Shown one piece after another: positions 7,095-63,650 of a stretch of DNA of 64,000 nt. How positions within the stretch are numbered: the stretch's first letter is position 1; each line of letters starts with the position of its first letter. The DNA is from an uncultured Acidobacteriota bacterium (lineage in GTDB: Bacteria; Acidobacteriota; Terriglobia; Terriglobales; Acidobacteriaceae): the NCBI GenBank assembly GCA_963842345.1, contig CAWJGD010000027.1:77383-141382 (forward strand), read 5' to 3'. The translations under genes and the position numbers were made by a program. Below the pieces are notes generated by a model, which did not search any database, had not been told where the DNA came from, and worked only from the letters and a program-made list of their open reading frames with translations.

Positions 7095-8513
<1,419 letters not shown>

Positions 8514-9672: not shown

Positions 9673-9772
9673 TGAGTGACACCATCGACCGCCCCATCCC
9701 ACAAAATCTGCGGCCCTGTTGGCGAAAAAAGCCCCACCCGGCAAGCTTTGCTTGAATGGGGCACCCGACGAA

Positions 9773-9806
9773 AAAGCAGATCTTTCGCTACGCTCAGGAT
9801 GACGCC
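9773..9806. repeat. Repeat family A, half copy
   Basis: AAAGCAGATCTTTCGCTACGCTCAGGATGACGCC is near-identical to 6911..6946. Confidence 0.8.
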
Positions 9807-9828
9807 TCGTTTAATTTGTTCCCGGCGC

Positions 9829-11584: not shown

Positions 11585-11922
11585 ATCAGAGCAGTTCCGG
11601 GCTGGCGCTGAACCGAGATCCAGGTTCGGGATCTCTGGGCAAGAACAGAGTGCGCTCTCCGGAAACCCACCTTTCAACTTAGGAGTTACTCGAAAGCTAA
11701 CGCCGAAGGCGGCGGTTGTCAAATCGGGTGGCAGCCCCGTTCGGTGCTGACGCAAAAGTGCCGGTCTGTGCCCTCAGCTAGCCCCTGCGCAGCCGTGTAG
11801 AGTTTAGTTTTGGCGATTGTCATTGCGCGTTCAAGAGCCGATAATGTAGGCACATAAGCTATCAAACGCAGGCAAAGTCAGCTTCCCATGCAAGCCGGGA
11901 ACAGACGCCTCAGGAGATCACC

Positions 11923-20787: not shown

Positions 20788-20790
20788 GAT

Positions 20791-21678
20791 CTAGTGTTCC
20801 GATCCGGGGCCCCCGGCGACTGCCGTTTTTGCACTCGTAGGGGCGGGTGTGACGAAATGCCGGTCGATGCCCAACTGCTCGCCCGACAAGCCCAAAGCCA
20901 GCCCCACCACGTCGGACAGGTAATACACCGTCAGGTCGAGCTTTTTGCCGTACTTGCGTTCCACTGCCGCCTGCTTCATGTCGAGGTTGACGTGGCACAT
21001 GGGGCAGGCGACGACGACGCAGTTCGCGCCGTGCTCGACAGCGTTGGTAAGAATTTTGCAAGCGAGCTCCAACACCGTGTCTTCGCTCGCCATGGTCATG
21101 CCCGCGCCGCAACACTCGGTCTTGTAACTCCACTCCACCGTCTTGGCGCCGAGCGCCGCCAGCAGCGTTTCCATGGACTTGGGTTGTTCGAAGTCGTCGA
21201 ACTTGACGACGCCCGGCGGGCGAAGCAGCAGGCAGCCGTAGTAGCACGCCGCCGTTATGGATTCGAGCGGCTGCGTGACGGCTGTCTTGAGACGGTCTCC
21301 GCCGATGGTCTCGAACAACTGGATCAGGTTGAGGACCTCGGCGTCTCCGCGAAGCTCGGCTTCGACGATCTGCGACAGCTCCTGGCGCACGCTATCGTCG
21401 GCGACCGCCTGACGCACCTTCAGAAGCTGCATCGAACACAGCGGACAAGGCGCAAAAACTTCTTTAAATCCGTCGCGTTCGGCGAGGGCCAGATTCCTGG
21501 CGGGAAGCGCCAGAGCCAGCTTGTGGTTCAGCGAGTGCGCCGCCGTCGCCCCGCAACAGATCCAGTCCTTCACTTCCTGAAGGCTGACGCCAAGCGCGCC
21601 CAGGCAGGCTTTCAGCGACTGATCGTAGTCATTGGACGAGCCATGCAGCGCGCATCCGGGATAGTAGCCGATGTTCAT
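20791..21678 (-). CDS. hdrB: Heterodisulfide reductase subunit B-like (two CCG domains)
   Basis: The true start is ATG 21678 (MNIGYYPGCALHGS) inside ORF 20791..22074. CCG motifs are WICCGATAAH and ECCGAGMT, plus PCPLC and CPMCH. There is an ATGA overlap with hdrC. Confidence 0.9.
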   Translation of the reverse strand: MNIGYYPGCALHGSSNDYDQSLKACLGALGVSLQEVKDWICCGATAAHSLNHKLALALPARNLALAERDGFKEVFAPCPLCSMQLLKVRQAVADDSVRQELSQIVEAELRGDAEVLNLIQLFETIGGDRLKTAVTQPLESITAACYYGCLLLRPPGVVKFDDFEQPKSMETLLAALGAKTVEWSYKTECCGAGMTMASEDTVLELACKILTNAVEHGANCVVVACPMCHVNLDMKQAAVERKYGKKLDLTVYYLSDVVGLALGLSGEQLGIDRHFVTPAPTSAKTAVAGGPGSEH

Positions 21679-22331
21679 TTGGCGACAGCCTCCACGGGAG
21701 CCCCGGCGGGAGATGTCCGGGATCCCCGGCGATTGCCTTCTTTGCAATCGCTGGGGTGGAAGGATGGCGCGCAACGGGCGTAAATGCGGCCTACGACCGC
21801 GCAATCGCGCGCCCGGTCGGATGCCAGATGCAGCTTCTTGCGCGACATCAGTTGCGGAGCCAGTCCGGCGTCCTTGAAAAGGAAGGCAAGCTGCCGCGTG
21901 CGCGACAGGACAGCAAGTTTGAAGCGCGCGATCAGTTCCAACTCGTTCAAACGGCCGTTGCGCTTGATGTTGTCGAGAAATGCCTGCTGAAAGGCCACCA
22001 CGGTTTGCGCCTCCGGACTCACCTTGCCTTCCCGCAGCGAGAACTCGCGCAACGCGTCCAGCAGGGCGGCACAATCAACCTGCTTGGGACACCTCGTCGA
22101 GCAGGTCAGACACGATACGCAGGCCCAGATGGAAGGCGAAGTCAAGGCAAGATCGTCGCGACCGAGTTGCAGAAGCCGGATCAGTTGATTCGGCACCAGA
22201 TCCATACGCGAGGCGACCGGGCAGCCGGCCGTACACTTGCCACACTGGTAGCAGTTTGCGATCTTGCTGCCGGCGAGCGATTCAATGCGCGCGGAGTGCG
22301 TGATAGCGCCAGACGGTTCCATGGGAGTCAA
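21675..22331 (-). CDS. hdrC: Heterodisulfide reductase subunit C-like (4Fe-4S dicluster)
   Basis: ORF 21675..22331 has CYQCGKCTAGCP and CVSCLTCSTRCP. The start is either TTG 22331 or ATG 22322. Confidence 0.85.
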   Translation of the reverse strand: MTPMEPSGAITHSARIESLAGSKIANCYQCGKCTAGCPVASRMDLVPNQLIRLLQLGRDDLALTSPSIWACVSCLTCSTRCPKQVDCAALLDALREFSLREGKVSPEAQTVVAFQQAFLDNIKRNGRLNELELIARFKLAVLSRTRQLAFLFKDAGLAPQLMSRKKLHLASDRARDCAVVGRIYARCAPSFHPSDCKEGNRRGSRTSPAGAPVEAVAK

Positions 22332-23722: not shown

Positions 23723-25901
23723 CTAGGCTTTAGAGGTGAAAGGTTTTTTCTTCAGCAACACGTTCTGGGAGCTGATTGCTTCTTCACCTGCGCCGGGTTG
23801 CAGCCGGACGTAGGTGCCATCCGGCTTCATCTCGCGCGCCTTGACGTTATCGGCGAGGTAGGTGCCGAGCACGTTGTCGTGGAGATGGCGAATCATTTTC
23901 CGGTCTTCGATCGGGAACAACAATTCAACCCGCCGGTTGAGATTCCGCGGCATCAGGTCCGAACTGCCGAGGTAGATGCACTCTTCGCCATTGTTGCGGA
24001 AATAATAGATGCGGCTGTGTTCCAGGAAGCGTCCAACAATGCTGATGACGCGGATATTATCGCTGACCCCGGGTATTCCCGGACGCAGACAGCAGATGCC
24101 GCGCACCAGCAGATCGATTTTCACCCCCGCCTGAGAGGCCTGGTACAACAGCCGGATCATCTTCTTATCGACCAGCGAGTTCATCTTGAGGATCATCCTG
24201 CCGTTGCCGTGGTTGCGCTGGTGTTCGATTTCGCGTTCGATCAACTGCGCGAATTTCTTCCGCAGGTTCGTCGGCGCAACCAGCAACTTGCGGTAATCGG
24301 TCTTGGCGGAATAGCCGGTCAGGTAATTGAAAAGGTCGGTGACGTCGGCAGCCAGATCCTCGTCGGTAGTAAGCAGGCCGAGGTCTGTGTAAAGGTGCGC
24401 GGTAACGGCATTGTAGTTACCGGTTGCCAGGTGAACGTATCGCCGGATGCTGTTGCCCTCGCGGCGGACAATCAGCATCGCCTTGCAATGGACCTTGAGG
24501 CCGACAAGTCCGTAGACGACGTGAGCGCCCTGTTGCTCCAAAGCCCGGGCCCAGCCAATATTGCTCTCCTCATCGAAACGCGCCTTGAGTTCGACTACGG
24601 CAGCCACCTGCTTGGGATCTTCCATGGCCTCAAGCAGCGCCTGCACCGCGGGAGAGTTCCTGCCCACGCGGTACAAGGTCATCTTGATGGCCAGCACCGC
24701 CGGGATCGCCAGCCGCAAGCTGCAACATGTCGACGATCGGTTGAAAGGAATCAAATGGCTGGTGCAGCAGGATGTCACGTTGGCGGATGACGGAGAAAAT
24801 GTCGTCATCCTCGTTTTCAGGCTTCAAATCCGCCGGCACGTTGGGAACAAAGGGATGCCACTTGAGGTCGGGCCGATTCAGCGCGACCAGGTGTTTCAGG
24901 CGGCCGAAGGAAAGCGGACCGTTCTGCTTGTAGATGCACTCCGGCTCGATTTCCAGGTTGGTTACCAGTATCTTGAGCATGCTGGAAGACATGCCGGTGT
25001 TCACCTGTAATCGGACCACGGCTCCAAAGCGGCGCTGGCGGACACCCTCTTCCATCACCTCCAGCAAATCTCCGGCGTCCAACTCGTCCTTGGTCGCCAA
25101 ATCGGCGTTGCGGGTAATGTGAAACGGACTGGCTTCGACGATTTGCATGCCGGGAAACAGTTTGCCGAGATTCGCCGCGATCAGGTCTTCCAGCCATAAA
25201 AACGATTGTTCGTTGCTCGCCTTGCCGCCGTTCTTGCGCCGTGGCGCACGGTCGATGGGGACCAGTTGCGGCAGCGTATCGGGCACTTTGACGCGCGCAA
25301 AACACTCCTCGCCGTGGTTGTCACGGATCAGGACGGCGAGGTTCAAACTCAAATTCGAAATGTGAGGGAAGGGATGACCCGGATCAAAGGCCAGAGGAGT
25401 CAGCACCGGAAGAACCGTGTCATCGAAATAGCTATCCGCCTTGGCCTGCTGCCGCGGGGTGAGCTGAGCGTATTCCAGCAGGTGAATGCCGCTGGCCTCC
25501 AGAGCCGGCAGCAATTTCCTGCGGAAGCAGCGCTGCGCGGCGACGAGCAGCGAGGCGACGCCCTTGCGGATCGCTTCCAGCTGCTCGATGGAACTCATGC
25601 CGTCCGGTCCTTCGTCGGAGATCCCCGAGTCAACCTCGCGCATAAGGCCGGAGACCCGCACCATGAAGAACTCGTCCAGATTGGAGCCGACGATGGAAAG
25701 GAAAAAGATGCGCTCCAGCAGCGGGTTGGAGGCGTCCTGCGCCTCTTCCAAAACTCGCCATTGGAAGGCCAGCAGGCTCAGTTCGCGATTGACGTAGTAG
25801 GACGGATCGTCAAGATCAATCAGCGCAGCCCTCTTCTCGACTGGCTTTGAATCGTGATGCTTCGTCGTTTGTCACAGGCGTCAACTGAGTGTTGGTTGTC
25901 A
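23723..25901 (-). CDS. ppk: Polyphosphate kinase 1; frameshift near 24700 and probably another near 25860 (5' end uncertain)
   Basis: ORFs 24630..25751 and 23723..24808 join at ...[25 protein letters not shown]1 hallmarks are [37 protein letters not shown], the HxK-like [10 protein letters not shown], and [15 protein letters not shown]. The best ATG (25901) is in another frame. Confidence 0.9.
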
Positions 25902-26542: not shown

Positions 26543-27875
26543 GTGGTGCATGCATTGAGCTTCCCATCCGATTTTCTTTGGGGCGTGTCGACCTCGGCAC
26601 ACCAGTTTGAAGGTGGGAACCTGCACAATCAGTGGGCCGCGTGGGAGCGCCGTGGCGGAATTCGCTCCGGGCACGCCTGCGCCGCCGCATGCAACTGGTG
26701 GCAAGAGGCGGAAGCGGATCTGGATCTGTGTCGCGAATTAGGCTTGAACGCCATCCGCATCTCGGTCGACTGGGGACGGGTGGAACCGGCTGAAGGCCAG
26801 TGGAACCGAAGCGCCATGGCGCGTTATCGCGCGATGCTGTGCGCGGCGGTGCAGCGCGGTATGCGGCCGTTCGTGACGTTGCATCACTTTACCCATCCGC
26901 AATGGTTGGAAGAGTCGGGCGGGTTCACCGCCATGAGCGCCGCCGCGAAGTTCGCGCTTTTTGCCGAACGAATGGCCGGCGAACTGGGCGAGTTCTGCCG
27001 CGACTGGCTGACCTTCAACGAACCGAATGTCTATGCCAGTTTCGGTTATGTATTCGGCGAATTTCCGCCCGGTTTGCGCTTTCGCATGTATGACTATGCG
27101 CTGGTGATGGCCACCATGCATCGGGCGCATGCGCTGGCCTATGAGCGCATCCACCGCGTGCAACCGGAGGCCGCTGTCGGCATCGCCACCAACTGGGTCG
27201 AGTTCCAGGCGGCAAGCAATTCCGCCCTCAGACCGGTTGATGGCTTACGCCTACGACACGGTTTTCAATCGCTCTACGTTGCAATTGTTCACCTGCGGCA
27301 ATTTGCAGTTTCCCTTCGGAGCGCTCGCGCCGGAGGTTCCCGAAGTGATGCAGAAGATCGATTTCATTGGGCTGAATGTCTACAACCGTCTGCACGTGCG
27401 AGCGCCCTGGAACGAGGCTTCGCGTCGCAGCGGCGGACTGTTCGTGCCCGACGACGCGCCGCAGGGCGATCACGGAGTCGAATTGCCTTATGGCGAAGCC
27501 TATCCGGACGCGATCGTGGCGGCCGCAACCGAATATGCGCGCCTCGGCGTTCCGCTCTATATCACGGAAAACGGAGTGCCGGACCGCGCCGACCGCATCC
27601 GCCCGTGGGTGATCGTGCAAAGCTTGCGGCGCATCGAGGATCTGGTTACGCGCGGAGTCGACGTGCGTGGATACTTTCACTGGAGCCTGGTGGACAATTT
27701 CGAATGGAGCGAGGGCTGGACGCTGCGCTTCGGGCTCTATGAGATGGACCCAGTGACGCAGTCCAGAAGACCGAGAGCGAGCGCCGGTTTATATCGCGAC
27801 ATCATCGCGCGGAACGGATTGAGTTACGAGCAGCTCAGCAGGTTCTCTGAACCGCCCGCCCCATGCAGCGGCTAA
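26543..27875 (+). CDS. Glycoside hydrolase family 1 (beta-glucosidase-like); +1 frameshift near 27227
   Basis: ORFs 26543..27742 and 27129..27875 join. Motifs are FLWGVSTSAHQFEG, the acid/base TFNEP, the nucleophile YITENG, and WSLVDNFEW. Confidence 0.9.
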
Positions 27876-46848: not shown

Positions 46849-48391
46849 CTAGTTGACCTTTGGATTTCGTACCGGTTTGGCTGGGGTGGCGTGCGCGGTC
46901 ACGTTGGGCGGCGTGCTGGCCGTGGGCTTGGGCTCCAGGATGATATAGGGAACCCTGTCCTGCTGATAAAGCGCGCGCAGTTGGTTGGTCATAAACGGCG
47001 GCGCGTGGTCGCCGGCAATGATCACCGTCATCGGCGGAAGGTCCGGGCGCAACACCAGTTTGGCGATCGCCTGGTTGGTTTCAAACTGCACCCTGACCAC
47101 GTTGCAGACCTCGTGATAACGCCGCGTGAAGTCGAAGTTCTCGCAGGGGAATTGCGAACTTGCGGCGGTCTTATCATCGACCGGAAGATGAGCGGTCAAG
47201 GTCACCCAGTGGATGAACAAGCGCTGGTTTCTGCGCGCGGCAATCAGGTCGCCAATGTAGGACGCAACCTCCGTATCGCAATTGCCGGGGAATGCCGAAC
47301 CGCATACCCCCTTCAACTTGGCCGCAAGCTCTTCCCGGAAGATCAACTCCTGGAAGCCGATCTGCGGATACCAGCTTTGACGGTCGAACATCTTCTTGGT
47401 GAATCCGTGCACGCCGATGGTGTGATAGCCGAGCTTGCGGAATTTCCAGGGCAGACACTCGCGGAGGGTATCGGGCGTATTATCTCCGGGGCCATAGAGC
47501 GTATCGCACAACTCCCGCATTTCTCCTCCGACGGTGCCTCCCCAAAAAAGCCACGGAACCGCGACGGAACGTGTACCGGGCTTTCACCTCGGGGCTCTCC
47601 AGAGGGGCGAGCACGGCGTCCTGGTCGGCTGCGTTCTTCAGGCCGCCAAGCGATTCCTCCAGGATGATCAGCACGTTTTGTGGAGATGATCCATCCCCGT
47701 AGGCGAGGGCGGGCGCCGCAAAGTATGCGGCGGACTGAGTCCTTTCCCGGATTGCCAAAGGTGCGAACAGCGCCATGCTTTCCTTGATCTCGGTGGCCAC
47801 CGACGAGCCGACCAGGACCTCGGGACCCTGCGTGGTCCACGAATCGGTAAGAACTCCGCGGGCCAGCCAAACGGGAACGAGCAGAACAGAGGCCGCGCCC
47901 AGCAACAGGGAGGCATGGCGCGATTCTTTCCGCATATCGCCCGCACAGCCCATCCAGGCTATGGCGCAGGCAACCGCCAGCAGAGCAAGAGCCATGGGCG
48001 CGGTGAGCCAAGGCGAGACTTGCCGCAGGTCCTTCAGATAGCGGAGTGCGGTTCCGAAATTAAAATAATAAATCTCGGAAAAGGAGCAGATAGCGTCGGC
48101 ACAATACAGAAGTATCGCCACCATTGCTATATAAAGCTTTCTTCCTCGAAACCAGCAGACGAGAAAGCCCAGGGCAAGGTAGTCGATGGAGATCCAGGCT
48201 CTTCGCACCGGAAGGATGAAACGCAAGAGCGCAAAGATCAGGTTGGGCAGAGCAAAGACGGTGAGCAGGGGCAAAAAAGCGCGCCAGTGCTGCTTGCTCC
48301 AGTCGGGAATCTTCCGGAAAATCGGGAACAACCGGTCCACCCAGTGCGAGTTGGCGTCAGTCGGCACTAATTCCTTACAGCATACCCGCAC
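46849..48391 (-). CDS. Membrane-anchored sulfatase / LTA-synthase-like (alkaline phosphatase superfamily) enzyme; frameshift at an A6 run near 47555
   Basis: ORFs 47480..48391 (about 5 TM helices, NVLIILEESLG) and 46849..47520 (GYHTIGVHG, HWVTLTAHLP, IIAGDHAPP) join. Confidence 0.75.
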
Positions 48392-48565: not shown

Positions 48566-49108
48566 TCAACGGGGCAAGCCCAGTCCCCAAGCAACCAGGC
48601 TGATGATGGTGCCCGCCGCCAGAGCCCAAGCCGGATTGCGTTCGCTGCGGAGGACGAAGACCGCTGCTGCCAGGGTGATGACGACCGTGAGGATGCCGCG
48701 GTCGGCGGCGCGGGCCATGACGACGCCTCCCGCCAGGATCAGGCCAATGGTGACCGGCACCAGACCGGTCTTTGCCACGGCGATCCAGGAGGTATCGGCG
48801 TGGCGGTGGACAACCCGGCCCACGATCAGGGCCAGAATCGAGGAGGGCACAACCATAGCCAACATGGCGACAGCCAGTCCGGCCAGCCCGGTGATGTGCC
48901 AGCCGATCAGGCCGACGACAATCACGTTCGGCCCCGGTGCCGCCTGCGCAATGGCATAAAGGTTGGCGAACGTGGTGTCATTCATCCAACCCTGCACATC
49001 CACCACTTGCCGGTGAATGCCGGGAAGCGCGGCAGTGATCCCTCCCACGGCAACGAACGACAGCGAGGCAAAGGTTACAAAGATGCGCCAGAGCAGATTA
49101 TCTTTCAC
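48566..49108 (-). CDS. chrA: Chromate transporter family protein (short-chain, second half of a pair)
   Basis: ORF 48566..49150 with GTG 49108 taken as the start. Motifs are FVAVGGITAALPGI and AIAQAAPGPNVIVVG. Confidence 0.8.
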   Translation of the reverse strand: MKDNLLWRIFVTFASLSFVAVGGITAALPGIHRQVVDVQGWMNDTTFANLYAIAQAAPGPNVIVVGLIGWHITGLAGLAVAMLAMVVPSSILALIVGRVVHRHADTSWIAVAKTGLVPVTIGLILAGGVVMARAADRGILTVVITLAAAVFVLRSERNPAWALAAGTIISLVAWGLGLPR

Positions 49109-49793
49109 GGCGACGCCCCAGATATGCCGCCCCGATGCTGAGCGGAGCAAGGACGGCCACCGCCGGAATCAGCGACACCTTGAGTAACCCTACGGCGATG
49201 AACGCCAGCAAGCCAAAGACAATTGCTATCGCGGTTGGATGCAGGCGCCGCGCCATTTTGAGCGCCGCGCCTATGACCAAACCGGCGGCTGCGGCGGCGG
49301 AGCCGCTGATGGCAGCCTGCACCTGCGGCAACGCGGCGAAGCGCTGGTAGAGCACTCCCAGGCCGGTGACGATGACCAGCGGCATGACCATCAGGCTGAC
49401 GACGCAAACGACCGCTCCTGCCATGCCCTGGAACCTGTCGCCGATCATTACGGCTGCGTTAATGGTATTTGCGCCGGGCAGGACTTGCCCGATCCCCATG
49501 ACCGACGCGTATTCCTCTTCGGTGAGCCAGGCGCGATCTTCGACGATGACATGACGAGCGATGGGAGCGACCCCGCCAAAACCAAGCAGGCCAATCTTCA
49601 GGAAGCCGGATAAAAGATGCCGTAGCGTGACGGTGCCAGCCACTCCGGTAGGGGTTGAAACAGGATTTGTGCCGCTCTGCATGAAAGATCTCGCTGTGAT
49701 CAACTCTTGTTTTTCGTGAGGGGCGATCCAGTCCCTCTCTATTGCGCCCGTCCCCGTTCCCGGCTTTGTCGGGCGATAAGCTTCACGCGCCAA
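49098..49793 (-). CDS. chrA: Chromate transporter family protein (short-chain, first half of a pair)
   Basis: ORF 49098..49793 has FLKIGLLGFGGVAPIA and GIGQVLPGANTINAAV. The start may instead be ATG 49682. Confidence 0.8.
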   Translation of the reverse strand: MAREAYRPTKPGTGTGAIERDWIAPHEKQELITARSFMQSGTNPVSTPTGVAGTVTLRHLLSGFLKIGLLGFGGVAPIARHVIVEDRAWLTEEEYASVMGIGQVLPGANTINAAVMIGDRFQGMAGAVVCVVSLMVMPLVIVTGLGVLYQRFAALPQVQAAISGSAAAAAGLVIGAALKMARRLHPTAIAIVFGLLAFIAVGLLKVSLIPAVAVLAPLSIGAAYLGRRRER

Positions 49794-49984
49794 ATCATAC
49801 CAGTGGCGAGTCGGGACAGAACATAGCTGTTGTGACCGCAGTCATACGCTCAATGCCAGCTCCGGGATACACTAATCCTAAAATAGCGCTAAAGTCAGCG
49901 AGTTCCGAACCGGCGGGGATTGCGCACGGTTGAGCAGAGAGGCGTTGAGCGCAAGTGTTGAAGGAAAGTGAGGATTGGGCGACC

Positions 49985-51104
49985 ATGGAAATGATTGATT
50001 TACGAAGCGACACCGTTACAAAACCTACCCGCGAAATGCGATTGGCAATGTTCAACGCGGAGGTGGGAGACGATGGCTACGGAGAAGATCCGACGGTGCG
50101 CAACCTCGAGGAGCTGGCGGCGCAAATGACCGGCAAAGAGGAAGGAATGTTCGTGGCCAGCGGCACCATGGGAAACCAGGCCGCCATCATGGTTCATACG
50201 AGGAAGTGCGACACCGTCATTTGCGAGGCTTCGGCGCATATTTACGGATCGGAAGCAGGCGCCATCGCCGGACTGTCAGGCGCTCAGCCGCTACCGGTTG
50301 CGGCGGTTCATGGAAAACTGACGCCTGAGATGATCGAGGACCTCATCAAGAGCGACAAAAAAAGGAATGTTTCACGCACGGCGCTGATCGCGGTCGAGAA
50401 CACTCACAACCGGGCAGGCGGCACCTATTACACGCCGGCGGAGTTGGAGGCGATCAAGCGGCTGGCGGGCAAATACTCGGTGCCGGTCCACATGGACGGG
50501 GCGCGGATTTTCAACGCCGCGGTAGCCCAGGGCATAGCGGTGGCAACGCTCGCCCAACATGCGGATTCGATGCAGTTTTGTCTCTCGAAGGGATTGGGCG
50601 CGCCGGTGGGGTCGATGGTGGTCGGAAGCCGGGATTTCATTTTCCAGGCGCGCCGTGCGCGGAGCATACTGGGCGGCGCCATGCGGCAGGCAGGCATTCT
50701 GGCCGCCGCCGGCATTGTGGCACTCACCACCATGGTAGAGCGTCTGGCCGAAGATCATGCGCCACGCGCGCATACTTGCCGAAGCGGTCGCTAATACCAA
50801 GGTGAAGATCGATTTATCAAGCGTGCAAACCAACATAGTCATATTCGATGTGTCTCCTCTAGGAATGAAGGCTGCCGAGTTTATCGACGAGCTGAAAGGA
50901 AGCAACATAAAGGCGAGTGAATATGGCAAATATCTGGTGCGTCTGGTTACGCATAAAGATGTCTCGCGCGCCGACATCGACTATGCGGTGGAGCGTGCTC
51001 GCGAGGCAGTGCAACCGGCAGAAGACGTCGCAGACGCACGCATAGCAGGCCACGATCTTTGCGGGGCGGCACACCGGTGTGGTGTCCCGGAAGTTCGTGC
51101 ATAA
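49985..51104 (+). CDS. ltaE: Low-specificity L-threonine aldolase; +1 frameshift near 50757; the last codons lie in a repeat element
   Basis: ORFs 49955..50794 and 50757..51104 join. Motifs are [49 protein letters not shown] and the PLP lysine in [12 protein letters not shown]. Confidence 0.85.
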
Positions 51105-55862: not shown

Positions 55863-57395
55863 ATGCCAACGCCGAACACTGTCGCGGCTGACTGCGTGCC
55901 GACACTGGCTGAAGCGCTGGGGATCGCCGCTTTCGGTCCAGCAACCGGGGACGTTCTCGCGGAGTCCCAGGGCTGTGAAGTGGTGGCGTTCACCGGCAGC
56001 GGTGGTAAGACTACGGCTATGTTCCGGCTGGCCGCCGAGCTGGTTGCACGCGGGGCACGCGTGCTGATCACGACCACAACTCACATCTATCCCCCGGATT
56101 CGCAACAGTTCCCCGCCACGGTCATCCCCGTGGTCATGGAAGACTCGCTGGAAACCCTTGTGCGCAGCGCACGGAGTGCCCTGGATCGGGGGCAACCCGC
56201 AGTGATCCTCGCGCGAGGGTTGGGGACAGACGGCAAACTTGTGGGCATCGATCCCGGATGGATAGAGCAACTGCCGAAGCGACTCCACGTCACCCACCTG
56301 CTGGTTGAGGCCGACGGCTCGCGGGGGCGGCCGTTCAAGGCTCCGGCGGAGCACGAGCCGGTGATACCGCCGTCCGCAGACTTGGTGGTGGCCGTGGTTG
56401 GACTTTCGGTGATCGGCCAGCCGCTATCGGAGGAGTTTGTGCACCGTCCCGAGCGCGTGGCGGACTTGGCGGGATGCCAGTTGGGCGACAGAGTCAGCCC
56501 GGCGTTGGTTGCCGGCGTGCTGCGGCATCCGGAGGGAAGCACGCGCGGAACGCCGGCCGGCGCCAGGGTGGTGGCACTGCTCAACCAGGCCGACGACGCA
56601 AGCCGCTTCGAGTCCGGTTGCGAGGTCGCCCGCGAGTTGATGGAGCGCGGCGCGGAACGGGTGGTCATCGCGGCTTTGCGCGAGGCGATGCCGATTCGCC
56701 GGGTGATCACCGGAAGCGCTCATGACGGCGCTTCCAGCGCGACGAGGGTTTCCGCCATCGTGCTGGCCGCCGGTGAAGGACGCCGTATGAGGTCGCTCAC
56801 GGCACCCCAGCGAGCCAAAGGCAGGCTTGCCGGGGACCCCGCGCTCAAGCTGGCCCTGCGGCTTGGCGGAAAAAGTCTCTTGCGCCATGTGGTAGAGGCC
56901 GCACTGGCGTCGCCGGTGGACGAGGTTGTGGTTGTGCTTGGACACGGCGCGGCGGAATTGGAGCTAGAGCTGCCACGCGATCCCCGGGTCCGCACCGCCT
57001 TCAATCCGGACTACGCCACAGGCCAAAGTTCGTCGGTCAAGGCAGGGATCAACGTGCTCGCTCCCCAGGCGCAGGCGGCGGTATTTCTGCTCGGCGACCA
57101 GCCGTTGGTCAGTTCGCGGGCCATCGCGGCCCTCGTCGGTGCCTTCCGCAGCGGCGGCAGCGCGGTGGTGCGGCCACGGTACCGAGGGACTCCGGGAAAT
57201 CCTGTGCTTTTCTCGCGGGCGCTATTCGCGGAGCTGTTGCAGGTTACGGGCGATCAGGGAGGACGGGAGCTGCTAGCTCGCCATCAGGCTGAGGTTGCAA
57301 TGGTGGATCTGAATCTGGAGTCGCCAGTCGACATTGACACCAAAAAAGATTACTCCCAACTTGTAAGAAACCTTCCCGATTTGGAAAAGCTGTGA
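55863..57395 (+). CDS. Fusion protein: YqeC-family selenium-dependent hydroxylase accessory domain + MocA-like molybdenum cofactor cytidylyltransferase domain
   Basis: ORF 55863..57395. The N-half has a P-loop (FTGSGGKTT) and VEADGSRGRPFKAPAEHEPVIP, as in YqeC (TIGR03172-like). The C-half has IVLAAGEGRRM...LGGKSLL...VVVVLGH...FLLGDQP, as in MobA/MocA NTP transferases. Confidence 0.8.
   Translation: MPTPNTVAADCVPTLAEALGIAAFGPATGDVLAESQGCEVVAFTGSGGKTTAMFRLAAELVARGARVLITTTTHIYPPDSQQFPATVIPVVMEDSLETLVRSARSALDRGQPAVILARGLGTDGKLVGIDPGWIEQLPKRLHVTHLLVEADGSRGRPFKAPAEHEPVIPPSADLVVAVVGLSVIGQPLSEEFVHRPERVADLAGCQLGDRVSPALVAGVLRHPEGSTRGTPAGARVVALLNQADDASRFESGCEVARELMERGAERVVIAALREAMPIRRVITGSAHDGASSATRVSAIVLAAGEGRRMRSLTAPQRAKGRLAGDPALKLALRLGGKSLLRHVVEAALASPVDEVVVVLGHGAAELELELPRDPRVRTAFNPDYATGQSSSVKAGINVLAPQAQAAVFLLGDQPLVSSRAIAALVGAFRSGGSAVVRPRYRGTPGNPVLFSRALFAELLQVTGDQGGRELLARHQAEVAMVDLNLESPVDIDTKKDYSQLVRNLPDLEKL
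56796..56843. repeat. Family D-like 48-nt element lying in frame inside the MocA-domain coding sequence
   Basis: CACCCCAGCGAGC...GCCGGGGACCCCG shares both 13-nt arms with intergenic copies at 48485..48517 and 36951..36986 (reverse complement). Confidence 0.7.
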
Positions 57396-58327
57396 GAAAA
57401 TCCCGGCACCGAGTTATTAGAAGAGCTGAGAATCCGTGTCCGAGACGTACGGATTCTTCCGCTTCCAGTTCGGTTGAGCGAAGGATTGGGCCCGTGTTTG
57501 AAGACGCAGTTGTGGTGATTAAAGGTGCGGGAGACTTGGCCAGTGGAGTGATTCTGCGGCTTCATCGCGCGGGGCTCCGGCTGGTTGTGACCGAGATTGA
57601 ACAGCCGACTACGGTGCGGCGGACGGTAGCTTTTTCCGAGGCGATCTACTGCGGAGAAGTCGAAGTCGAGGGAGTGCGCGCGCGCAAGATTAAAGATAGC
57701 AATGAAATTCCGCGAGCGTGGAGCGAGGGTGTGGTGCCTGTACTGGTCGATCCGTGGGCCGAGATCGTGCCACGGCTTCGTCCAGCGGCGGTGGTTGACG
57801 CCATTCTCGCCAAGCGCAACCTTGGGACACGGATCTCGGATGCGGATGTCGTGATTGGTCTCGGACCGGGCTTCGAGGCGGGAGTCGATGTCCACGCGGT
57901 GGTGGAAACCAACCGTGGCCATCAGCTTGGCCGGGTTTTATGGCATGGCTTCGCCGAACCGGATACGGGTGTGCCTGGCGAAATCGCGGGCCATGGCCTG
58001 CAACGGCTGCTGCGGGCTCCATCGGCGGGATTGTTTCGGGGCGAGAGAGCGATTGGGGATCGGGTTGAAGCCGGCGAGGTGGTCTGTTGGATCGACCAGA
58101 CGCCGGTAAAGGCCGGCATTGCGGGCGTGCTGCGCGGACTGCTGCATGACGGCTTGTGCGTTTATCCGGGAATGAAGATTGGCGACATCGATCCGAGGGC
58201 TGCTCGCGAACATTGCTTCACTGTGTCGGATAAGTCGCTGGCGATCGCAGGAGGAGTCCTGGAGGCAGTGCTTTACCTTTTGCGCGGGCAATGCCGCGCG
58301 TTTGCCCAGAGCGCTTCCGTCCGATAG
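57392..58327 (+). CDS. YqeB-family selenium-dependent molybdenum hydroxylase system protein
   Basis: ORF 57392..58327 overlaps the upstream stop (GTGA). The pattern VVIKGAGDLASGV...RRTVAFSEAIY...VVDAILAKRNLGT...ETNRGHQLGRV...GVLRGLL...G.KIGDIDPR matches the YqeB C-terminal family (TIGR03309-like). The start may instead be GTG 57494. Confidence 0.75.
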   Translation: MRKSRHRVIRRAENPCPRRTDSSASSSVERRIGPVFEDAVVVIKGAGDLASGVILRLHRAGLRLVVTEIEQPTTVRRTVAFSEAIYCGEVEVEGVRARKIKDSNEIPRAWSEGVVPVLVDPWAEIVPRLRPAAVVDAILAKRNLGTRISDADVVIGLGPGFEAGVDVHAVVETNRGHQLGRVLWHGFAEPDTGVPGEIAGHGLQRLLRAPSAGLFRGERAIGDRVEAGEVVCWIDQTPVKAGIAGVLRGLLHDGLCVYPGMKIGDIDPRAAREHCFTVSDKSLAIAGGVLEAVLYLLRGQCRAFAQSASVR

Positions 58328-58483
58328 TGGCGGGCGTTGGCGGTGGAGCGCAGGAATCGCCGCGAATGGAACGTAGGGCTCAAAAGTCCGGAGATTCTGC
58401 TTGACAAACGCGAGCAGCGACGGCACGCTGCGAAGGGTCGATCCAGGGCACAAAAAGGGTGATGAGGACGGAAGGGGGAAACT

Positions 58484-59122
58484 ATGGAAAAAGAACGAGA
58501 CGTGTCAACTTCTGGTGAGGAGCAGGAAACAGGTAAGCTCCGCGTCTCGCGTCGTGGCTTCCTGAAGGGGATGGGGGTCAGCACCGCGGCGGCGGCCATG
58601 GCGACGGCGATGGTGCCCCAACTGGAAGCGGAGACGGCTCCCCTGGTGAAGGGGATTCGCGAGGCGGTAATCGTAACCGAGATTAACGGCAAGAAGTATC
58701 GTCTGGCGGTCAAATCGCACTGGACGCTGCTCGACGTGTTGCGACGGGAACTTGGCCTGACCGGCACGAAGAAGACCTGTGACCGCTCCAGTTGCGGAGC
58801 CTGCACGGTCCTCATGGACGGCAAGGCCGTCTATGCCTGTACTCAATTGGCCATCGAGGCGGACAAGCGCAAGATCACCACGATCGAGGCGTTGTCCGAG
58901 GGAGAAACGCCGCATCCGATTCAGGCGGCCTTCATACGGGAGGACGCATATCAGTGCGGTTTCTGCACGCCAGGCCAGATCATGTCGACGAAGGCGTTGC
59001 TCGACTCCAACCCGCGGGCGAGCCTGGCCGAGATAAAAGAAGCCCTTTCGGGAAACATCTGCCGATGCAGCGCCTACCCCAAGATCACCAAAGCGGTGTT
59101 ATCGCTGGCGCGGAAGGCATAG
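58484..59122 (+). CDS. Molybdenum hydroxylase small subunit, 2x[2Fe-2S], with twin-arginine signal peptide (PaoA-like)
   Basis: ORF 58484..59122 has a strong SD and the Tat motif SRRGFLKGMGVSTAAAAMA. Cluster motifs are CDRSSCGACTV and CGFCTPG...CRCSAY. Confidence 0.9.
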   Translation: MEKERDVSTSGEEQETGKLRVSRRGFLKGMGVSTAAAAMATAMVPQLEAETAPLVKGIREAVIVTEINGKKYRLAVKSHWTLLDVLRRELGLTGTKKTCDRSSCGACTVLMDGKAVYACTQLAIEADKRKITTIEALSEGETPHPIQAAFIREDAYQCGFCTPGQIMSTKALLDSNPRASLAEIKEALSGNICRCSAYPKITKAVLSLARKA

Positions 59123-59137
59123 GGGGAGGGAGATACT

Positions 59138-61366
59138 ATGAGCTCGGAATTTAGAGTTATCGGAAAGCCTCAACCAAAGATGGACGGGTTTGAAAAAGTA
59201 ACCGGACGGGCGAAGTATGCCACGGATTTCTCCCTTCCCGGCATGCTCTGCGTGAAGGTCTTGAGAAGCCCGTACCCGCATGCGCGGGTTGTCAACATCG
59301 ATGCCTCGAAAGCCCTGGCATTGCCGGGCGTAAAGGCGGTGCTTACCCACAAGGATATCGCGGCGTATCCCCGCTGGAATCCCGTTTACCCAATCCTCAC
59401 GGATGTCGCCCGCTTCGTTGGCGATGACATTGCTTTGGTAGCCGCGGTGGATGAGGAGACGGCTGTGGAAGCGCTGGCCTTGATCAAGGTCGACTACCAG
59501 GTTCTTCCCTTTGTGCTGGATCCGGAAGAAGCGCTGAAGCCGAGCGCCCCCAAGTTATTTCCGGAGGGCAACCTGGTCGGTGGTAAGCCGACGGTGGTCA
59601 GCAGGGGGGACGTGGCGAAAGGTTTTGCCGAGGCCGATCTGGTCTACGAAGCACGCTATCGGACTCCCATCAATCAGCACGCGACCATGGAGGCCAGGGC
59701 CGCGATTGCCCAGTGGGAAGGCGGCAGGTTGACCATCTGGGATTCCACCCAGGCTCCGTTCGAAGTGCAGAAAGCAGTCGCCAAAGCGCTCAAGATCCCG
59801 CAGAGCAAAGTGCATGTGATCTGCGAGTTTATGGGAGGCGGCTTCGGCGACAAATCCTCCCCGGGACGGCAAAGTGTTCAGGCCGCCATCGTCGCCCGGA
59901 AGACGGGCCGCCCGGCAAGAATCGAGTTAGAAAGAGAGGAATGCTATCTTGAGGGCCTGCACCGCTATGCGGCCATCATTGACCTGAAGTACGGGGTGAA
60001 GAAGGACGGCACGCTTACTGCTATCGAGGCGAAAGTTGTCGCAGATGGTGGAGCTTATGCTGTCTTTGGGCTCGCCGCACTCGGGGTACTGCAAATTCCG
60101 ATGGATGTTTACCGTTGCCCGAATATGAAAGGCGAGGGCTATACGGTGAATACGAACAACCCGGCAACCGGCCCCATGCGCTGTGTCGGGCATCCCCAGG
60201 GAACGTTTGCCCAGGAAGTCCACATGGACATCATCGCCGAGAAGCTGGGGATGGACCCGGTGGAATTGCGCTTGAAAAATTATGCGCGGCTGGAAGATGG
60301 CGACCAGTTCAGGAAGATTCCTTTCACCAGCAACGGCATGGAAGAGTGCATCAAGCGTGGCGCGGAAACCTTCCAGTGGAAAGAGAAGATGCAGAAGGCG
60401 GCCGCCCAGGCTGGTCCGGTCAAGAAGGGTTTTGGCGTATCGGTTCACGCATGCCGCCATGGCGGCATGCCTCCGGGAATGCCTTTGTCAGGCATGGTGC
60501 GGATCAACGCCGATGGCACATTGAATGTGTTCACCGGCGCAACCGAGCTTGGATGCGGGCAGAAAACCACCATGGCGATGATCGCCGCCGAAGAGTTCGG
60601 GATGTTGTTGAACGATGTGTACGTCACTACGGGCGATACCGACAAGACGACGGACACAGGCAGCACTTCCGGGAGTCGCCAGACAATCACCGGCGGAACC
60701 GGCGTGAAGATGGCGGCGGCGGACGCCAAGAACCAATTGCTTGACGTGGCGGCTGCCGAGCTGAAGACGGACAAGAAGAACCTGAGCATTCGGGACAGCA
60801 TGGTCTATGTGGCGGGCTCCGACAAAGGTGTTCCGCTGGATCAGATTGCGGCAAAAATGCCGGGCGGGGTCATTCACGGCCGCGGCTACATGAAGATTCC
60901 CACGGATGTTTTTTTCCATGGGTTCGCGGCGCAGTTTGCCGAGGTGGAAGTGGACACCCGCAACGGCCATGTCAAAGTTCTCAAGATCGTGGCGGCTCAC
61001 GATCTCGGTCGGGTCATCAACCCACTGACGGCCGAGAGCCAGATCGAGGGAGGCGTGATTCAGGGAATGGCCTTTGGCTTGTCTGAAGATCAGATCTACG
61101 ACAAAGCCACCGGCATTTGCGTGAACCCGAATCATCTCAATTACAAGCTGATGACGATGAAGGATGTGCCGGAGATCGTGCCGATCATGGTGGAGTCGAT
61201 CGATAAACTAGGCCCGTTCGGGGCGAAGGGTATTGGGGAACCACCCTACAGCCCGCCCGCACCGGCCATAGCGAATGCGATCTACAACGCGATCGGCGTC
61301 CGCTTCTCGGAACTTCCGATCACCAACCGTGCGATCCTCATGGGCCTGAAGGCGAAAAAGGGCTAG
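59138..61366 (+). CDS. Molybdenum hydroxylase large (molybdopterin-binding) subunit, xanthine dehydrogenase / aldehyde oxidoreductase family
   Basis: ORF 59138..61366 (742 aa) has the KVTGRAKYATD start and GGGFGDK, then a C-terminal GAKGIGEPP motif. Confidence 0.9.
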   Translation: MSSEFRVIGKPQPKMDGFEKVTGRAKYATDFSLPGMLCVKVLRSPYPHARVVNIDASKALALPGVKAVLTHKDIAAYPRWNPVYPILTDVARFVGDDIALVAAVDEETAVEALALIKVDYQVLPFVLDPEEALKPSAPKLFPEGNLVGGKPTVVSRGDVAKGFAEADLVYEARYRTPINQHATMEARAAIAQWEGGRLTIWDSTQAPFEVQKAVAKALKIPQSKVHVICEFMGGGFGDKSSPGRQSVQAAIVARKTGRPARIELEREECYLEGLHRYAAIIDLKYGVKKDGTLTAIEAKVVADGGAYAVFGLAALGVLQIPMDVYRCPNMKGEGYTVNTNNPATGPMRCVGHPQGTFAQEVHMDIIAEKLGMDPVELRLKNYARLEDGDQFRKIPFTSNGMEECIKRGAETFQWKEKMQKAAAQAGPVKKGFGVSVHACRHGGMPPGMPLSGMVRINADGTLNVFTGATELGCGQKTTMAMIAAEEFGMLLNDVYVTTGDTDKTTDTGSTSGSRQTITGGTGVKMAAADAKNQLLDVAAAELKTDKKNLSIRDSMVYVAGSDKGVPLDQIAAKMPGGVIHGRGYMKIPTDVFFHGFAAQFAEVEVDTRNGHVKVLKIVAAHDLGRVINPLTAESQIEGGVIQGMAFGLSEDQIYDKATGICVNPNHLNYKLMTMKDVPEIVPIMVESIDKLGPFGAKGIGEPPYSPPAPAIANAIYNAIGVRFSELPITNRAILMGLKAKKG

Positions 61367-61383
61367 GGTGAAGGAGATAAACG

Positions 61384-62373
61384 ATGAAACCATTCGATTA
61401 CTATCGAGTCACCACGGTCGGGCAGGCTGTAGCCCTTTTGACGAAGTATCAAGAGAAGGCTGCCATTCTCGCCGGCGGAAGCGACCTGCTGGGCTTGATC
61501 AAAGACGGCATTGAAGGCCCGGCGCTGAAAACACCGAAGCACTTGATCGATATCAAGGGGATCAAGGACTTCGCCTACATCAAGGAGCAGAAGACCGGCC
61601 TGAGGATTGGCGCCGGGACCACGCTCAGCGAGATCATCCACTCCGATCTTATCGAGAGCAAGTATCCGCTCGTGGCGCAGGCGGCCAAGCAGGTGGCGGT
61701 TCCGCAGATCAGGAATGTAGCCACCCTTGGCGGCAACCTGTGCCAGCGGCCGCGCTGCTGGTACTTCCGGGGAAAGCTTTTCTCGGACTGCATTCGCAAG
61801 GGCGGCGCAAACTGCTACGGCAAGGATGGAGAGAACCAGTACCATGCCATCATGGGAGGCGACATCTGCTGCATGGCTTACCCCTCGGACATGGCTCCGG
61901 CACTGATTGCGCTCGACGCCAAGGCCGAGATCGCGGGCCCGAAAGGGACGAGAATCATTCCCTTGGAGAAGTTCTACATCTCCCCCGAGCAAGCCCTGAC
62001 GAAGGAAAACGTGCTTTCCCCGCAGGAAATGCTGGTGGCGGTAGAGATTCCGGCTGCTTCGCAGGGCAGGAAGGGCGTCTACCTGAAGCTAAAGGAAAGA
62101 CAGGCCTTCGACTTCGCGGTGGTCAGCGTTGCGGTAAGTGTAGCGCTGAAGGGATCCACGGTTACGGACTCGCGGGTGGTTTTTGGCGGCCTGGCGCCGT
62201 TCCCCACCAGGAGCATGAAAGCAGAGAGCGCCCTGAAAGGCAAGGACCTGAAGAGCGCTGTCAGCGCGGCCTGTGTCGCCTCGGTTCAAGGCGCACAACC
62301 GTTGAGCAAGAATGCTTACAAGATCGAAGCGACCAAGGGAGTACTGGAAGAAGCGCTGAACCTGTTAGCCTGA
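61384..62373 (+). CDS. Molybdenum hydroxylase FAD-binding medium subunit (CoxM/PaoB-like)
   Basis: ORF 61384..62373 has ILAGGSDLL, RNVATLGGNLCQRPRCWYFR (a 4-Cys stretch as in PaoB-type subunits) and a CO_deh_flav_C-like tail. Confidence 0.9.
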   Translation: MKPFDYYRVTTVGQAVALLTKYQEKAAILAGGSDLLGLIKDGIEGPALKTPKHLIDIKGIKDFAYIKEQKTGLRIGAGTTLSEIIHSDLIESKYPLVAQAAKQVAVPQIRNVATLGGNLCQRPRCWYFRGKLFSDCIRKGGANCYGKDGENQYHAIMGGDICCMAYPSDMAPALIALDAKAEIAGPKGTRIIPLEKFYISPEQALTKENVLSPQEMLVAVEIPAASQGRKGVYLKLKERQAFDFAVVSVAVSVALKGSTVTDSRVVFGGLAPFPTRSMKAESALKGKDLKSAVSAACVASVQGAQPLSKNAYKIEATKGVLEEALNLLA

Positions 62374-62494
62374 CGCCTGGTTGCGGGTGGTGGGGCTATC
62401 TAAACGAAGCACTATGTGTGCCTCGCAGAGCTGCAGCGCAATCGTTTGTATGCTCACATCAGAGCAAGCCTGTTTTTCAGTAGCCTGCTGAGCG

Positions 62495-62525
62495 GGTGGC
62501 ATTTTCGAATGCCACCTTTTTCTTT
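62495..62525 (+). terminator. Rho-independent terminator after the hydroxylase operon
   Basis: GGTGGCATT-TTCG-AATGCCACC perfect 9-bp stem followed by TTTTTCTTT. Confidence 0.8.
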
Positions 62526-62551
62526 CGGCGCTCATTGTGATCGTTGATGCC

Positions 62552-63650
62552 ATGAAGATATCGCGAGTTCATACGCAAATCGTAAACGTTCCCGAAGCGC
62601 AATCGCTTGCGGGGTTGCCGTTACAGCCTCCCGTGGTGCGGCCATTTGTTACGCTTGCGACTCGAGACCGATGAAGGCATCGACGGAATCGCAGTGAGTT
62701 TTACTTTCTATTCCAAAGCAATGACCAACGCGCTGAGGAGCGCTGTCCACGACTTGGCGTCACTCGCCATCGGCGAGAACCCGCTGGTTCCGGGGCCGAT
62801 TCTGGAGAAACTGCGCGCTGCCGCAGGTGGCTCGGGTCCCGGGGGCATCTTCATGCTGGCGTTTTCAGCCATCGACATTGCGTTGTGGGATATCCGCGGC
62901 AAGGCGCTGAATCAGCCGCTGTGGAAGTTGCTTGGCGGAGGGCGGCAGCAGGTGCCCGCTTACGCCAGTGGCACGCTTCAACGGAACCTGTCGGATGACG
63001 AGGTGGTTCAGGCTGCCCGTTGCCTGGTCGAAAAAGGTTTCCGGCAGATCAAAATGCAGCTCGGGCTTGCCGGCGAGCACTCGCCCGCGAAGGAAGTGGA
63101 GCGGGCACGAATCGTGCGCGAGAGTGTCGGTCCCGACGTCAAGCTGATGGCGGATGTAAACCAGGGCTGGCGCGTGGAGCAGGCGATCGATGTTGGCCGG
63201 CGACTGGAAGAACTCCAGTTCTTCTGGCTGGAAGATCTCACGGTGCACGACGACTTCGCGGGACTGGCTCGTATCTCTGACGCACTGGTGACGCCCGTGG
63301 CCGGCGGCGAATATGTCTGGGGTATCATTCCATTCCGCCACATGCTGGAGGCGCGCTCGGTTGACATCCTGATCATCGACGCCTTGCGGGTGGGCGGGAT
63401 CACGCAATGGATGAAGGTCGCGGGCATGGCCGAGGCATTCAACACGCGGGTTGTGAACCACTGCTTCCCGGAATTCCTGGTGCACCTGGTGGCGGCCGCC
63501 CCGAACGCTTTCACGCTTGAATACATGCCATGGACGCTGCCGTTGTTCGAAGAGGTCCCCCAACTTCGGAACGGTGAAGTTATCGTGCCGGATCGTCCCG
63601 GACTCGGACTCAAGTTTGATGAGGACTTCATACGGCGGCACGGGGCCTGA
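62552..63650 (+). CDS. Enolase-superfamily enzyme (mandelate racemase / muconate lactonizing family); +1 frameshift near 62657
   Basis: ATG 62552 (MKISRVHTQIVNVP...) joins ORF 62607..63650 at FVTL/RLETDEGIDG. Motifs are IDIALWDIRGKA, MADVNQGW, FFWLEDL and ILIIDA. Confidence 0.85.

Follow-up and report, generated by a model that had tools for sequence, protein, structure and literature searches.

The 64,000-nucleotide stretch of DNA analysed here (the window; contig CAWJGD010000027.1 of an uncultured Acidobacteriota bacterium, positions 77,383 to 141,382) carries an operon of five genes, which encode a fusion of a YqeC-family P-loop NTPase with a MocA-like nucleotidyltransferase, a YqeB-family protein, and the three subunits of a molybdenum hydroxylase. 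It is very probable that the operon specifies a heterotrimeric enzyme similar to Escherichia coli PaoABC, exported through the machinery of twin-arginine translocation (Tat) and preceded by the genes of its own cytoplasmic maturation module. Because YqeB and YqeC mark the selenium-cofactor trait, the enzyme is considered a candidate periplasmic selenium-dependent hydroxylase; to the whole explanation, with candidate selenium dependence included, a probability of about 0.45 is assigned. Every gene of the operon belongs to a known, automatically annotated family and the fusion is common; what may be new is the combination. In the literature searched, no description was found of a Tat-exported PaoB-type hydroxylase encoded with selenium-marker genes and lacking XdhC in soil or peat acidobacteria or in Candidatus (Ca.) Limnocylindria. 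The observations on which this account is built are gene content, family membership, the Tat signal, fold classes, and co-occurrence statistics.

The YqeC-MocA fusion protein and YqeB

The N-terminal half of the fusion had been assigned to the YqeC family in a first-pass annotation of the window, and the hidden Markov model (HMM) check agrees with this assignment: TIGR03172 gives 195.7 bits (cutoff 73.05) and the Pfam model YqeC, PF19842, 153.1 bits (cutoff 27.6). The stretches FTGSGGKTT and VEADGSRGRPFKAPAEHEP fall on invariant columns of the YqeC alignment (G16, G18, G19, K20; E120, D122, G123; R127; K130-P132; E136, P137). The invariant GxGGKT and EADG motifs, together with the SIMIBI fold of the AlphaFold2 (AF2) model (pLDDT 93, pTM 0.91), constitute the core of a P-loop NTPase, and the domain is predicted from this model to belong to the SIMIBI class. 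Its nearest solved folds are MeaB, HypB, SRP54/FtsY, and MinD, at modest template-modelling (TM) scores of 0.4-0.46. The YqeC sequence profile weakly matches FtsY, FlhF, ParA, and Mur-ligase entries in PDB. MobB was considered as an identity for the domain and rejected, as the profile finds no MobB structure in PDB and the SIMIBI class alone is common to both.

The C-terminal half had been described as a MocA domain. It is a MobA-like NTP transferase domain by NTP_transf_3 (PF12804, 119.7 bits), and TIGR03310 is the top-scoring transferase model, matched over positions 1-188 of 188; however, the score of 165 bits lies under the equivalog cutoff of 186.45. Given this score, the domain is better called MocA-like than MocA, and both its use of cytidine triphosphate (CTP) and its formation of the molybdopterin cytosine dinucleotide cofactor (MCD) are putative. 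Its relatives in PDB are the MobA/MocA-related proteins 2waw and 2we9. The LAAG motif of this half may be closer to that of MocA than to that of MobA.

The joining of the two domains had been regarded as a new configuration, a view which could not be maintained. A search with the fusion across 5.8 billion protein clusters returned 1177 matches at E<=1e-10, and among the best 120, whose architecture was inspected, PF19842 and PF12804 occur together in nearly all, at lengths of 435-535 aa and with 36-91% identity to the query. The source names of the clusters include Korobacteraceae, Anaerolineae, and Chloroflexota. Such fusions are known from Acidobacteriota, Chloroflexota, and Moorellaceae, and NCBI and JGI already annotate them automatically. 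The fusion itself, as opposed to an indel product, is genuine: the same single ORF (open reading frame) occurs in more than 100 homolog clusters from several phyla and, although the linker varies in length, the sequence is unbroken across 24 aligned homologs.

The assignment of the second protein to the YqeB family was also upheld, with 380.1 bits to TIGR03309 (cutoff 220) over model positions 1-255 of 256; the ORF has no Pfam match. The possibility of a disguised, generic XdhC protein was tried and rejected, since hhalign against a 28-sequence XdhC profile gave a probability of 10%, over 44 columns of a Rossmann motif (beta-alpha-beta). The invariant residues of YqeB include Cys275, in HCF[TS]xSDK, and a His/Asp/Glu/Arg cluster at positions 166-177. 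YqeB has no solved sequence relative. In its AF2 model (pLDDT 82.5), a Rossmann-like domain precedes a beta-hybrid domain of the biotinyl/lipoyl type, and no whole-chain analogue was found among solved structures at TM above 0.24. The C-terminal half is similar both to beta-hybrid domains of this type and to the domains at the C terminus of enzymes in the AstE/aspartoacylase family.

The predicted exported molybdenum enzyme

The PaoABC-like architecture suggested earlier for the enzyme was borne out: there is a Tat-type small subunit, a large subunit of 742 aa that falls in the xanthine-oxidase family, and an FAD (flavin adenine dinucleotide) subunit, in which a four-cysteine insert was recognized. 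In the small subunit, which contains Fer2 and Fer2_2, the twin-arginine signal (SRRGFLKG) is recognized by TIGR01409 with 24.5 bits (cutoff 16.7), and PF10518 scores 22.4 bits, slightly under its cutoff of 22.7. The best NCBIfam model for this subunit is PaoA (181.9 bits, cutoff 322), with a match that spans the signal region. Members of its 90% cluster are called YagT (PaoA) by JGI, and the names that JGI gives to cluster members of the enzyme's subunits are YagT and YagS.

Three xanthine-oxidase-family Pfam domains were found in the large subunit, and it reaches no NCBIfam equivalog cutoff (for PaoC, 390.5 bits against 1180). Its closest solved structure is HcrA (1rm6_A, 370 bits); PaoC gives 251 bits and 5Y6Q 236.8 bits. 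The FAD subunit is closest to 5y6q_B (177.5 bits) and to PaoB (5g5g_B, 141.5 bits), and its four cysteines line up with the four cysteines of the insert in both proteins. In the PaoABC structure, those of PaoB are the ligands of a [4Fe-4S] cluster.

Assignment of the enzyme as an orthologue of PaoABC, XdhABC, or HcrABC was rejected, as no subunit reaches an equivalog cutoff. It was also rejected as a 4-hydroxybenzoyl-CoA (coenzyme A) reductase, for which the alpha subunit scores 552.2 bits against 994.55 and the beta subunit 207.7 against 404.55; a CoA-thioester substrate is implausible because the enzyme is predicted to be exported. The substrate is likely an aldehyde or an N-heterocycle.

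Organization of the operon

The five co-directional genes named by the first-pass annotation are all present on the plus strand (Table 1), and each ORF is full length by comparison with its homologs. The structural genes follow the order FeS-Mo-FAD (A-C-B in Pao terms) and are separated by 15 nt and 17 nt. The tight or overlapping spacing claimed for the whole set applies to them but not to the flanks of yqeB, where there are about 98 nt between the fusion stop codon and the likely start of yqeB, and 156 nt between yqeB and the Fe-S gene. A start overlapping the previous stop had been proposed for yqeB; the GTGA is present in the sequence, but yqeB most likely starts at GTG 57494, because its homologs (265-290 aa) begin at the residue equivalent to V35 and this codon is preceded by an AAGGA motif 9-13 nt upstream. 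The terminator reported downstream of the FAD gene was found as well, with a 10-bp stem that includes 5 GC pairs at 62494-62517.

Table 1. Genes, domains, and other elements of the hydroxylase operon in the window
Feature	Coordinates	Strand	Evidence
YqeC-MocA fusion protein, 510 aa; variable linker joins N-terminal YqeC P-loop NTPase and C-terminal MocA-like domain	55863..57395	+	TIGR/Pfam matches
YqeC domain, residues 40-260	55980..56642	+	TIGR03172; Walker A GSGGKT, Walker B-like EADG
MocA-like NTP_transf_3 domain, residues 297-500, putative CTP:molybdopterin cytidylyltransferase	56751..57362	+	TIGR03310 (sub-cutoff), PF12804
YqeB, ~277 aa from likely GTG start	57494..58327 (longest ORF from 57392)	+	TIGR03309
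Small subunit, two [2Fe-2S] clusters and Tat signal peptide	58484..59122	+	Fer2, Fer2_2
Twin-arginine signal, residues 21-46	58544..58621	+	TIGR01409; SRRGFLKG, then hydrophobic stretch
Molybdopterin-binding large subunit, 742 aa	59138..61366	+	Ald_Xan_dh_C, MoCoBD_1, MoCoBD_2
FAD subunit, 329 aa, PaoB-type Cys-rich insert	61384..62373	+	FAD_binding_5, CO_deh_flav_C
Putative [4Fe-4S] insert, residues ~110-151, Cys115/Cys125/Cys133/Cys150	61711..61836	+	Cys alignment to 5y6q_B and PaoB
Intrinsic-terminator-like hairpin and T-run closing the operon	62494..62527	+	stem and TTTTCTTTCG

Conservation of the module and its association with the enzyme

Three surveys of loci were made. In survey (a), YqeB served as the anchor for 80 genome loci; survey (b) added five more relatives of the fusion (L081, L084-L087) from precomputed gene tables; and survey (c) used the large subunit as the anchor for 67 metagenome loci, of which 24 have enough upstream sequence to be informative. 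Exactly the same five-gene operon is present in three metagenome-assembled genomes (MAGs) of Acidobacteriota in survey (a), and altogether in L001, L002, L023, L086/L124, L088-L090, L092, L103, and L149. The order fusion-YqeB-FeS-Mo-FAD is kept in at least 10 independent contigs, with identities of the accessory proteins from 59% to 93%.

Among the YqeB-anchored loci, YqeC and MocA form a single ORF in 8 of 80 (Acidobacteriota, Chloroflexota, Moorellaceae); in 5 further loci two genes abut or overlap with YqeC first (YqeC>MocA), to which L023, its arrangement obscured by frameshifts, is added, and 3 loci have the reverse arrangement, MocA>YqeC, with the genes adjacent. In 28 of the 80 loci, yqeB has an XdhC-family gene within 10 kb; in 9 it is within 150 nt, and in L074 it is fused to YqeB. 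The earlier suggestion that fusions reveal functional pairing is supported by the recurrence of these two combinations, YqeC with MocA and XdhC with YqeB. With an iterated XdhC HMM, no XdhC gene was detected in the window or in any locus of the acidobacterial type.

In survey (a), Tat-type small subunits stand beside yqeB/yqeC in the acidobacterial loci and in two loci of Ca. Limnocylindria (L030, L064); the other small subunits neighbouring yqeB/yqeC have no N-terminal extension. In L030 (12713-19782), two tandem Tat-FeS/Mo pairs followed by one FAD gene adjoin yqeB and a divergent, unfused yqeC.

The fusion-YqeB pair is found in more than one setting in survey (b). It stands beside a Tat-type enzyme in L086, beside cytoplasmic hydroxylases of CoxLMS order in L085 and L087, beside a Tat-exported bis-MGD (molybdopterin guanine dinucleotide) enzyme with ModABC in L081, and alone in L084; neither XdhC nor an AIRS-domain SelD was found in any of the five loci. 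In L085 (5208-12465) and L087 (5049-13462), the pair is located downstream of a Mo-FAD-FeS hydroxylase and a PF04199 cyclase (kynurenine-formamidase-like); L085 has a TetR regulator and major facilitator superfamily (MFS) transporters upstream, and in L087 a CN_hydrolase gene is inserted. This context looks like an N-heterocycle catabolic cluster. The L081 locus (4075-12516 of a 2.9-Mb MAG contig) consists of ModABC, a molybdoenzyme with the signal VSRRSFLKSAA that is not Sec-truncated, a 4Fe-4S protein, and then the fusion with a YqeB-sized gene, and there is no xanthine-oxidase-family enzyme within 10 kb of the pair. It hints that the pair can belong to a general molybdenum island.

In survey (c), the FeS(Tat)-Mo-FAD enzyme proved to be frequent in peat and soil. 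The YqeC-MocA fusion and YqeB are directly upstream of it in 8 of the 24 informative loci, so that the physical coupling of the enzyme to its accessory genes, put forward earlier, is facultative. No XdhC or SelD was found in any of the 67 loci. Where yqeB/yqeC are missing, the flanks are unrelated and no alternative maturation genes were found alongside. In one such locus (L094, 5022-9172), an enzyme of 81% identity is flanked by genes for an M20 peptidase, an amidohydrolase, an Asp/Glu/hydantoin racemase, and a class II aldolase, which recall the hydantoinase/peptidase genes of purine-degradation clusters and possibly point to the class of substrate. The large subunit also has orphan paralogues, of 69-73% identity and with no Fe-S or FAD gene nearby, in L099-L102 and L106-L108 (e.g., L101, 8186-10405). 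The L101 paralogue has an MR/MLE enolase-superfamily gene as a neighbour, as is the case after the operon in the window (62607-63650).

A proposed maturation pathway

We infer the biochemical steps described here, as well as the substrate and the identity of the ligand, from family membership and gene arrangement. In the proposed pathway, the MocA-like domain would transfer cytidine monophosphate onto Mo-molybdopterin, yielding MCD. The fused YqeC NTPase, of the broad class that includes the MeaB and HypB chaperones, would gate the hand-over of the new cofactor by hydrolysis of a nucleoside triphosphate. YqeB, with its invariant Cys275 and its His/Asp/Arg cluster, would then take the cofactor, fit the terminal chalcogen ligand, and insert the cofactor into the large subunit. 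It may act here without a partner, because no chaperone of the XdhC/PaoD type is encoded nearby; the roles described for PaoD/XdhC are binding of the molybdenum cofactor (Moco), its sulfuration, and its insertion (PMC2997495). Finally, the folded and cofactor-loaded trimer would be exported via Tat, with the two other subunits hitch-hiking on the signal of the small one. Tat export by hitch-hiking is described for PaoABC (PMC4273604).

The order of these steps was deduced from fusions and adjacency. Read as Rosetta stones, the pairings of YqeC with MocA and of XdhC with YqeB suggest a sequence of nucleotide addition, gated hand-over, and ligand insertion with delivery. In a wider, four-part MCD module, MocA would add the nucleotide, YqeC would gate the hand-over, XdhC would hold the cofactor, and YqeB would modify it before insertion. 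The Korobacteraceae version appears, from its gene content, to be a reduced, XdhC-less module placed in front of an exported enzyme.

The selenium question

Both YqeB and YqeC, which together with SelD mark the selenium-cofactor trait, are present in the operon. TIGR03309 was reported solely from selD-positive genomes, often fused to XdhC (PMC2276186). On xanthine and urate, a Clostridioides difficile strain mutated in yqeB resembles one mutated in selD (PMC11448449), and DOPDH of C. sporogenes is inactive when obtained from a selD mutant (bioRxiv 10.1101/2025.04.24.650524). The Ca. Korobacteraceae reference genome, that of Ca. Koribacter versatilis Ellin345, is SelD+/SelA+/SelB+, and a 2016 survey recorded no acidobacterial genome with YqeB or YqeC, though many had SelD/SelA/SelB. 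Given what is known of the family, and given that YqeB has been published as exclusive to selD-positive genomes, it is probable that selD is present in the genome.

Two probes were used for selD: an E. coli SelD sequence, run with tblastn, and an HMM that was built anew from the matches in the positive controls. They were validated by the detection of selD next to yqeB in 7 of the 80 YqeB-anchored loci, mostly from Firmicutes and one from Anaerolineae.

Several points weigh against the reading as a selenium enzyme with a dedicated module. The search for selD was negative in the 64-kb window, in the next 10 kb to its left in syntenic contigs, and in about 75 loci of the acidobacterial type; the sequences scanned also contain no tRNA-Sec, Rfam match, SECIS (selenocysteine insertion sequence), or Sec-interrupted gene. 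A C. difficile yqeC mutant has no phenotype (PMC11448449), and no known residue signature separates selenium from sulfur enzymes. According to reviews, the trait is marked only by SelD, YqeB, and YqeC jointly and is tied to anaerobic or low-oxygen, host-associated niches, and the window encodes KatG, which speaks for an aerobe-type context. To these are added the sub-cutoff score of the MocA-like half, the absence of the pair in cis from 16 of the 24 informative loci of survey (c), relatives of 81-83% identity included, and the occurrence of the pair alone or beside a bis-MGD enzyme in related MAGs, where it may serve the whole cell. The absence of selD from these sequences would nevertheless be expected if the gene, located elsewhere in the genome, serves selenocysteine synthesis. 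The chance that selenium is the ligand of this enzyme is put a little below even.

The most serious alternative keeps the same enzyme and module and omits selenium: YqeB and YqeC-MocA would be a general system of MCD synthesis, sulfuration, and insertion which replaces XdhC/PaoD, and the ligand would be an ordinary sulfido group. This is a real possibility, though it also falls somewhat short of an even chance. It would account for the lack of XdhC in the window and in the acidobacterial-type loci when XdhC is so often within 10 kb of yqeB elsewhere, for the failure to detect selD or any other gene of selenium metabolism in about 0.8 Mb of related loci, for a pair that accompanies Tat-type hydroxylases, cytoplasmic hydroxylases, or none, and for the aerobe-type context with KatG. 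Peng et al. also report YqeB/YqeC homologs without a complete selenium trait and possible selenium-independent roles. However, YqeB lies far over the cutoff of an equivalog restricted to selD-positive genomes (PMC2276186), and loss of yqeB phenocopies loss of selD (PMC11448449). Moreover, in selenocysteine-using genomes, of which the family reference genome is one, selD is expected far from yqeB, and the HdrA/MvhD-type cluster of the window is typical of anaerobic metabolism.

According to the second alternative, the adjacency is incidental: the pair would mature other, cytoplasmic molybdenum hydroxylases, and the periplasmic enzyme would be transcribed independently and matured by factors encoded elsewhere. 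The 98-nt and 156-nt gaps around yqeB, the enzyme relatives without the pair in cis, and the pair without this enzyme in L081, L084, L085, and L087 are in its favour. It is nonetheless improbable, as the five-gene order persists at accessory-protein identities down to 59%, Tat-type enzymes adjoin yqeB/yqeC in a second phylum, and no other maturation gene was ever seen beside the enzyme in the loci examined. That the fusion or the operon structure was made by indel errors of an error-prone assembly, as the many window genes split relative to syntenic contigs and the frameshift-riddled operon of L023 could suggest, is effectively refuted by the recurrence of the fusion architecture, with its continuous linker, across independent assemblies and phyla and by the agreement of the five ORFs with homolog lengths.

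The selenium version of the proposed pathway can be worded as follows: Korobacteraceae of soil and peat, and Ca. Limnocylindria, would possess a Tat-exported, selenium-containing MCD hydroxylase, whose labile selenium is fitted in the cytoplasm by an XdhC-independent YqeC-MocA/YqeB module. This reading is given somewhat less than an even chance. If true, the enzyme would be the first periplasmic selenium-dependent molybdenum hydroxylase, the third selenium-utilisation trait would reach beyond anaerobic, mostly host-associated bacteria, and YqeB alone could serve as a cofactor chaperone. Of the routes by which organisms use selenium, its insertion into molybdenum hydroxylases is the one least understood. 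The operon, with one enzyme, one fusion, YqeB, and no XdhC, is a minimal self-contained system suited to heterologous reconstitution. Should selD be present in the lineage, the operon would predict a periplasmic selenium enzyme for bacteria that are abundant in soil.

Genomic context

Three unrelated proteins of the window sit in clusters of at least 90% identity with NCBI members named Candidatus Korobacteraceae (Terriglobales, Acidobacteriota), and the organism is assigned to this family. A cluster of sugar kinase, aldolase, and dehydrogenase genes is located directly upstream of the operon. On the minus strand, at 15665-22074, there is a five-gene heterodisulfide-reductase-like (Hdr-like) cluster, encoding a CCG-domain HdrB-like protein, a 667-aa HdrA-like flavo-FeS protein, and MvhD (FlpD)-domain, Fer4_22, and NAD-binding/DHODB-FeS proteins. 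All of them are Cys forms, and the stop between the first two in-frame ORFs (HdrB/HdrA) is TAG. The cluster suggests that the genome combines an anaerobic electron-bifurcating capacity with KatG.

An FdhD/NarQ-family sulfur-transfer chaperone is encoded at 71-784 (plus strand), cut at the window edge; its homologs have about 280-293 aa. No formate dehydrogenase (FdhA) gene was found within 10 kb upstream of FdhD in syntenic contigs. Split or truncated genes were noted at 941-2329, 10496-11755, 24630-25751, 26543-27742, 46849-48391, 48566-49793, and 49955-51104. They encode an 810-aa unknown protein, IlvD, polyphosphate kinase, GH1, a sulfatase, a chromate transporter, and a beta-eliminating lyase, and are intact in L155-L157. 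The splitting is consistent with indel errors of a long-read MAG assembly, and the hydroxylase operon is unaffected.

Comparison with known systems

Among solved enzymes, HcrABC (1RM6) gives the best match for the large subunit, and its beta subunit also has an Fe-S insert. However, HcrABC is a cytoplasmic enzyme with a CoA thioester as substrate, which cannot be reconciled with Tat export, and its model cutoffs are missed here. The aldehyde oxidase of Methylobacillus sp. (5Y6Q) provides, with its medium subunit, the closest solved relative of the FAD subunit, including the alignment of the cysteine insert, whereas its large subunit is distant.

MobB is the SIMIBI-class P-loop NTPase partner of MobA in MGD synthesis. 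The pairing of a nucleotidyltransferase with an NTPase of this class recurs in the YqeC-MocA fusion, an analogy drawn from the fold class. The two systems differ in that the YqeC profile does not find MobB in PDB, and in the nucleotide, which here is presumably CTP and not guanosine triphosphate (GTP).

The system of E. coli PaoABC(D) has in common with the operon the heterotrimer, the Tat signal on the 2x[2Fe-2S] subunit, the four Cys of a [4Fe-4S] insert in the FAD subunit, a large subunit that belongs to the xanthine-oxidase family, and, putatively here, the MCD type of this subunit and the loading of the cofactor before export. It differs in operon order (A-B-C, against A-C-B here) and in maturation genes, as PaoD/XdhC is absent from the operon and YqeC-MocA and YqeB are found instead. 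PaoC is also more distant from the large subunit of the operon than are the models for HcrA and for E. coli XdhA, and no Pao cutoff is reached.

The last comparison concerns the set of the selenium-dependent hydroxylases (YqeB, YqeC, YgfJ/MocA, and SelD) of E. coli, Enterococcus faecalis, C. difficile, and Haloarcula. The operon resembles it in having YqeB and YqeC over curated cutoffs, a MocA-like transferase, and an adjoining xanthine-oxidase-family enzyme. It departs from the set in that the enzyme is, by prediction, Tat-exported, XdhC is absent, no selD is nearby, and the host belongs to the soil and peat Korobacteraceae rather than to gut or strictly anaerobic organisms.

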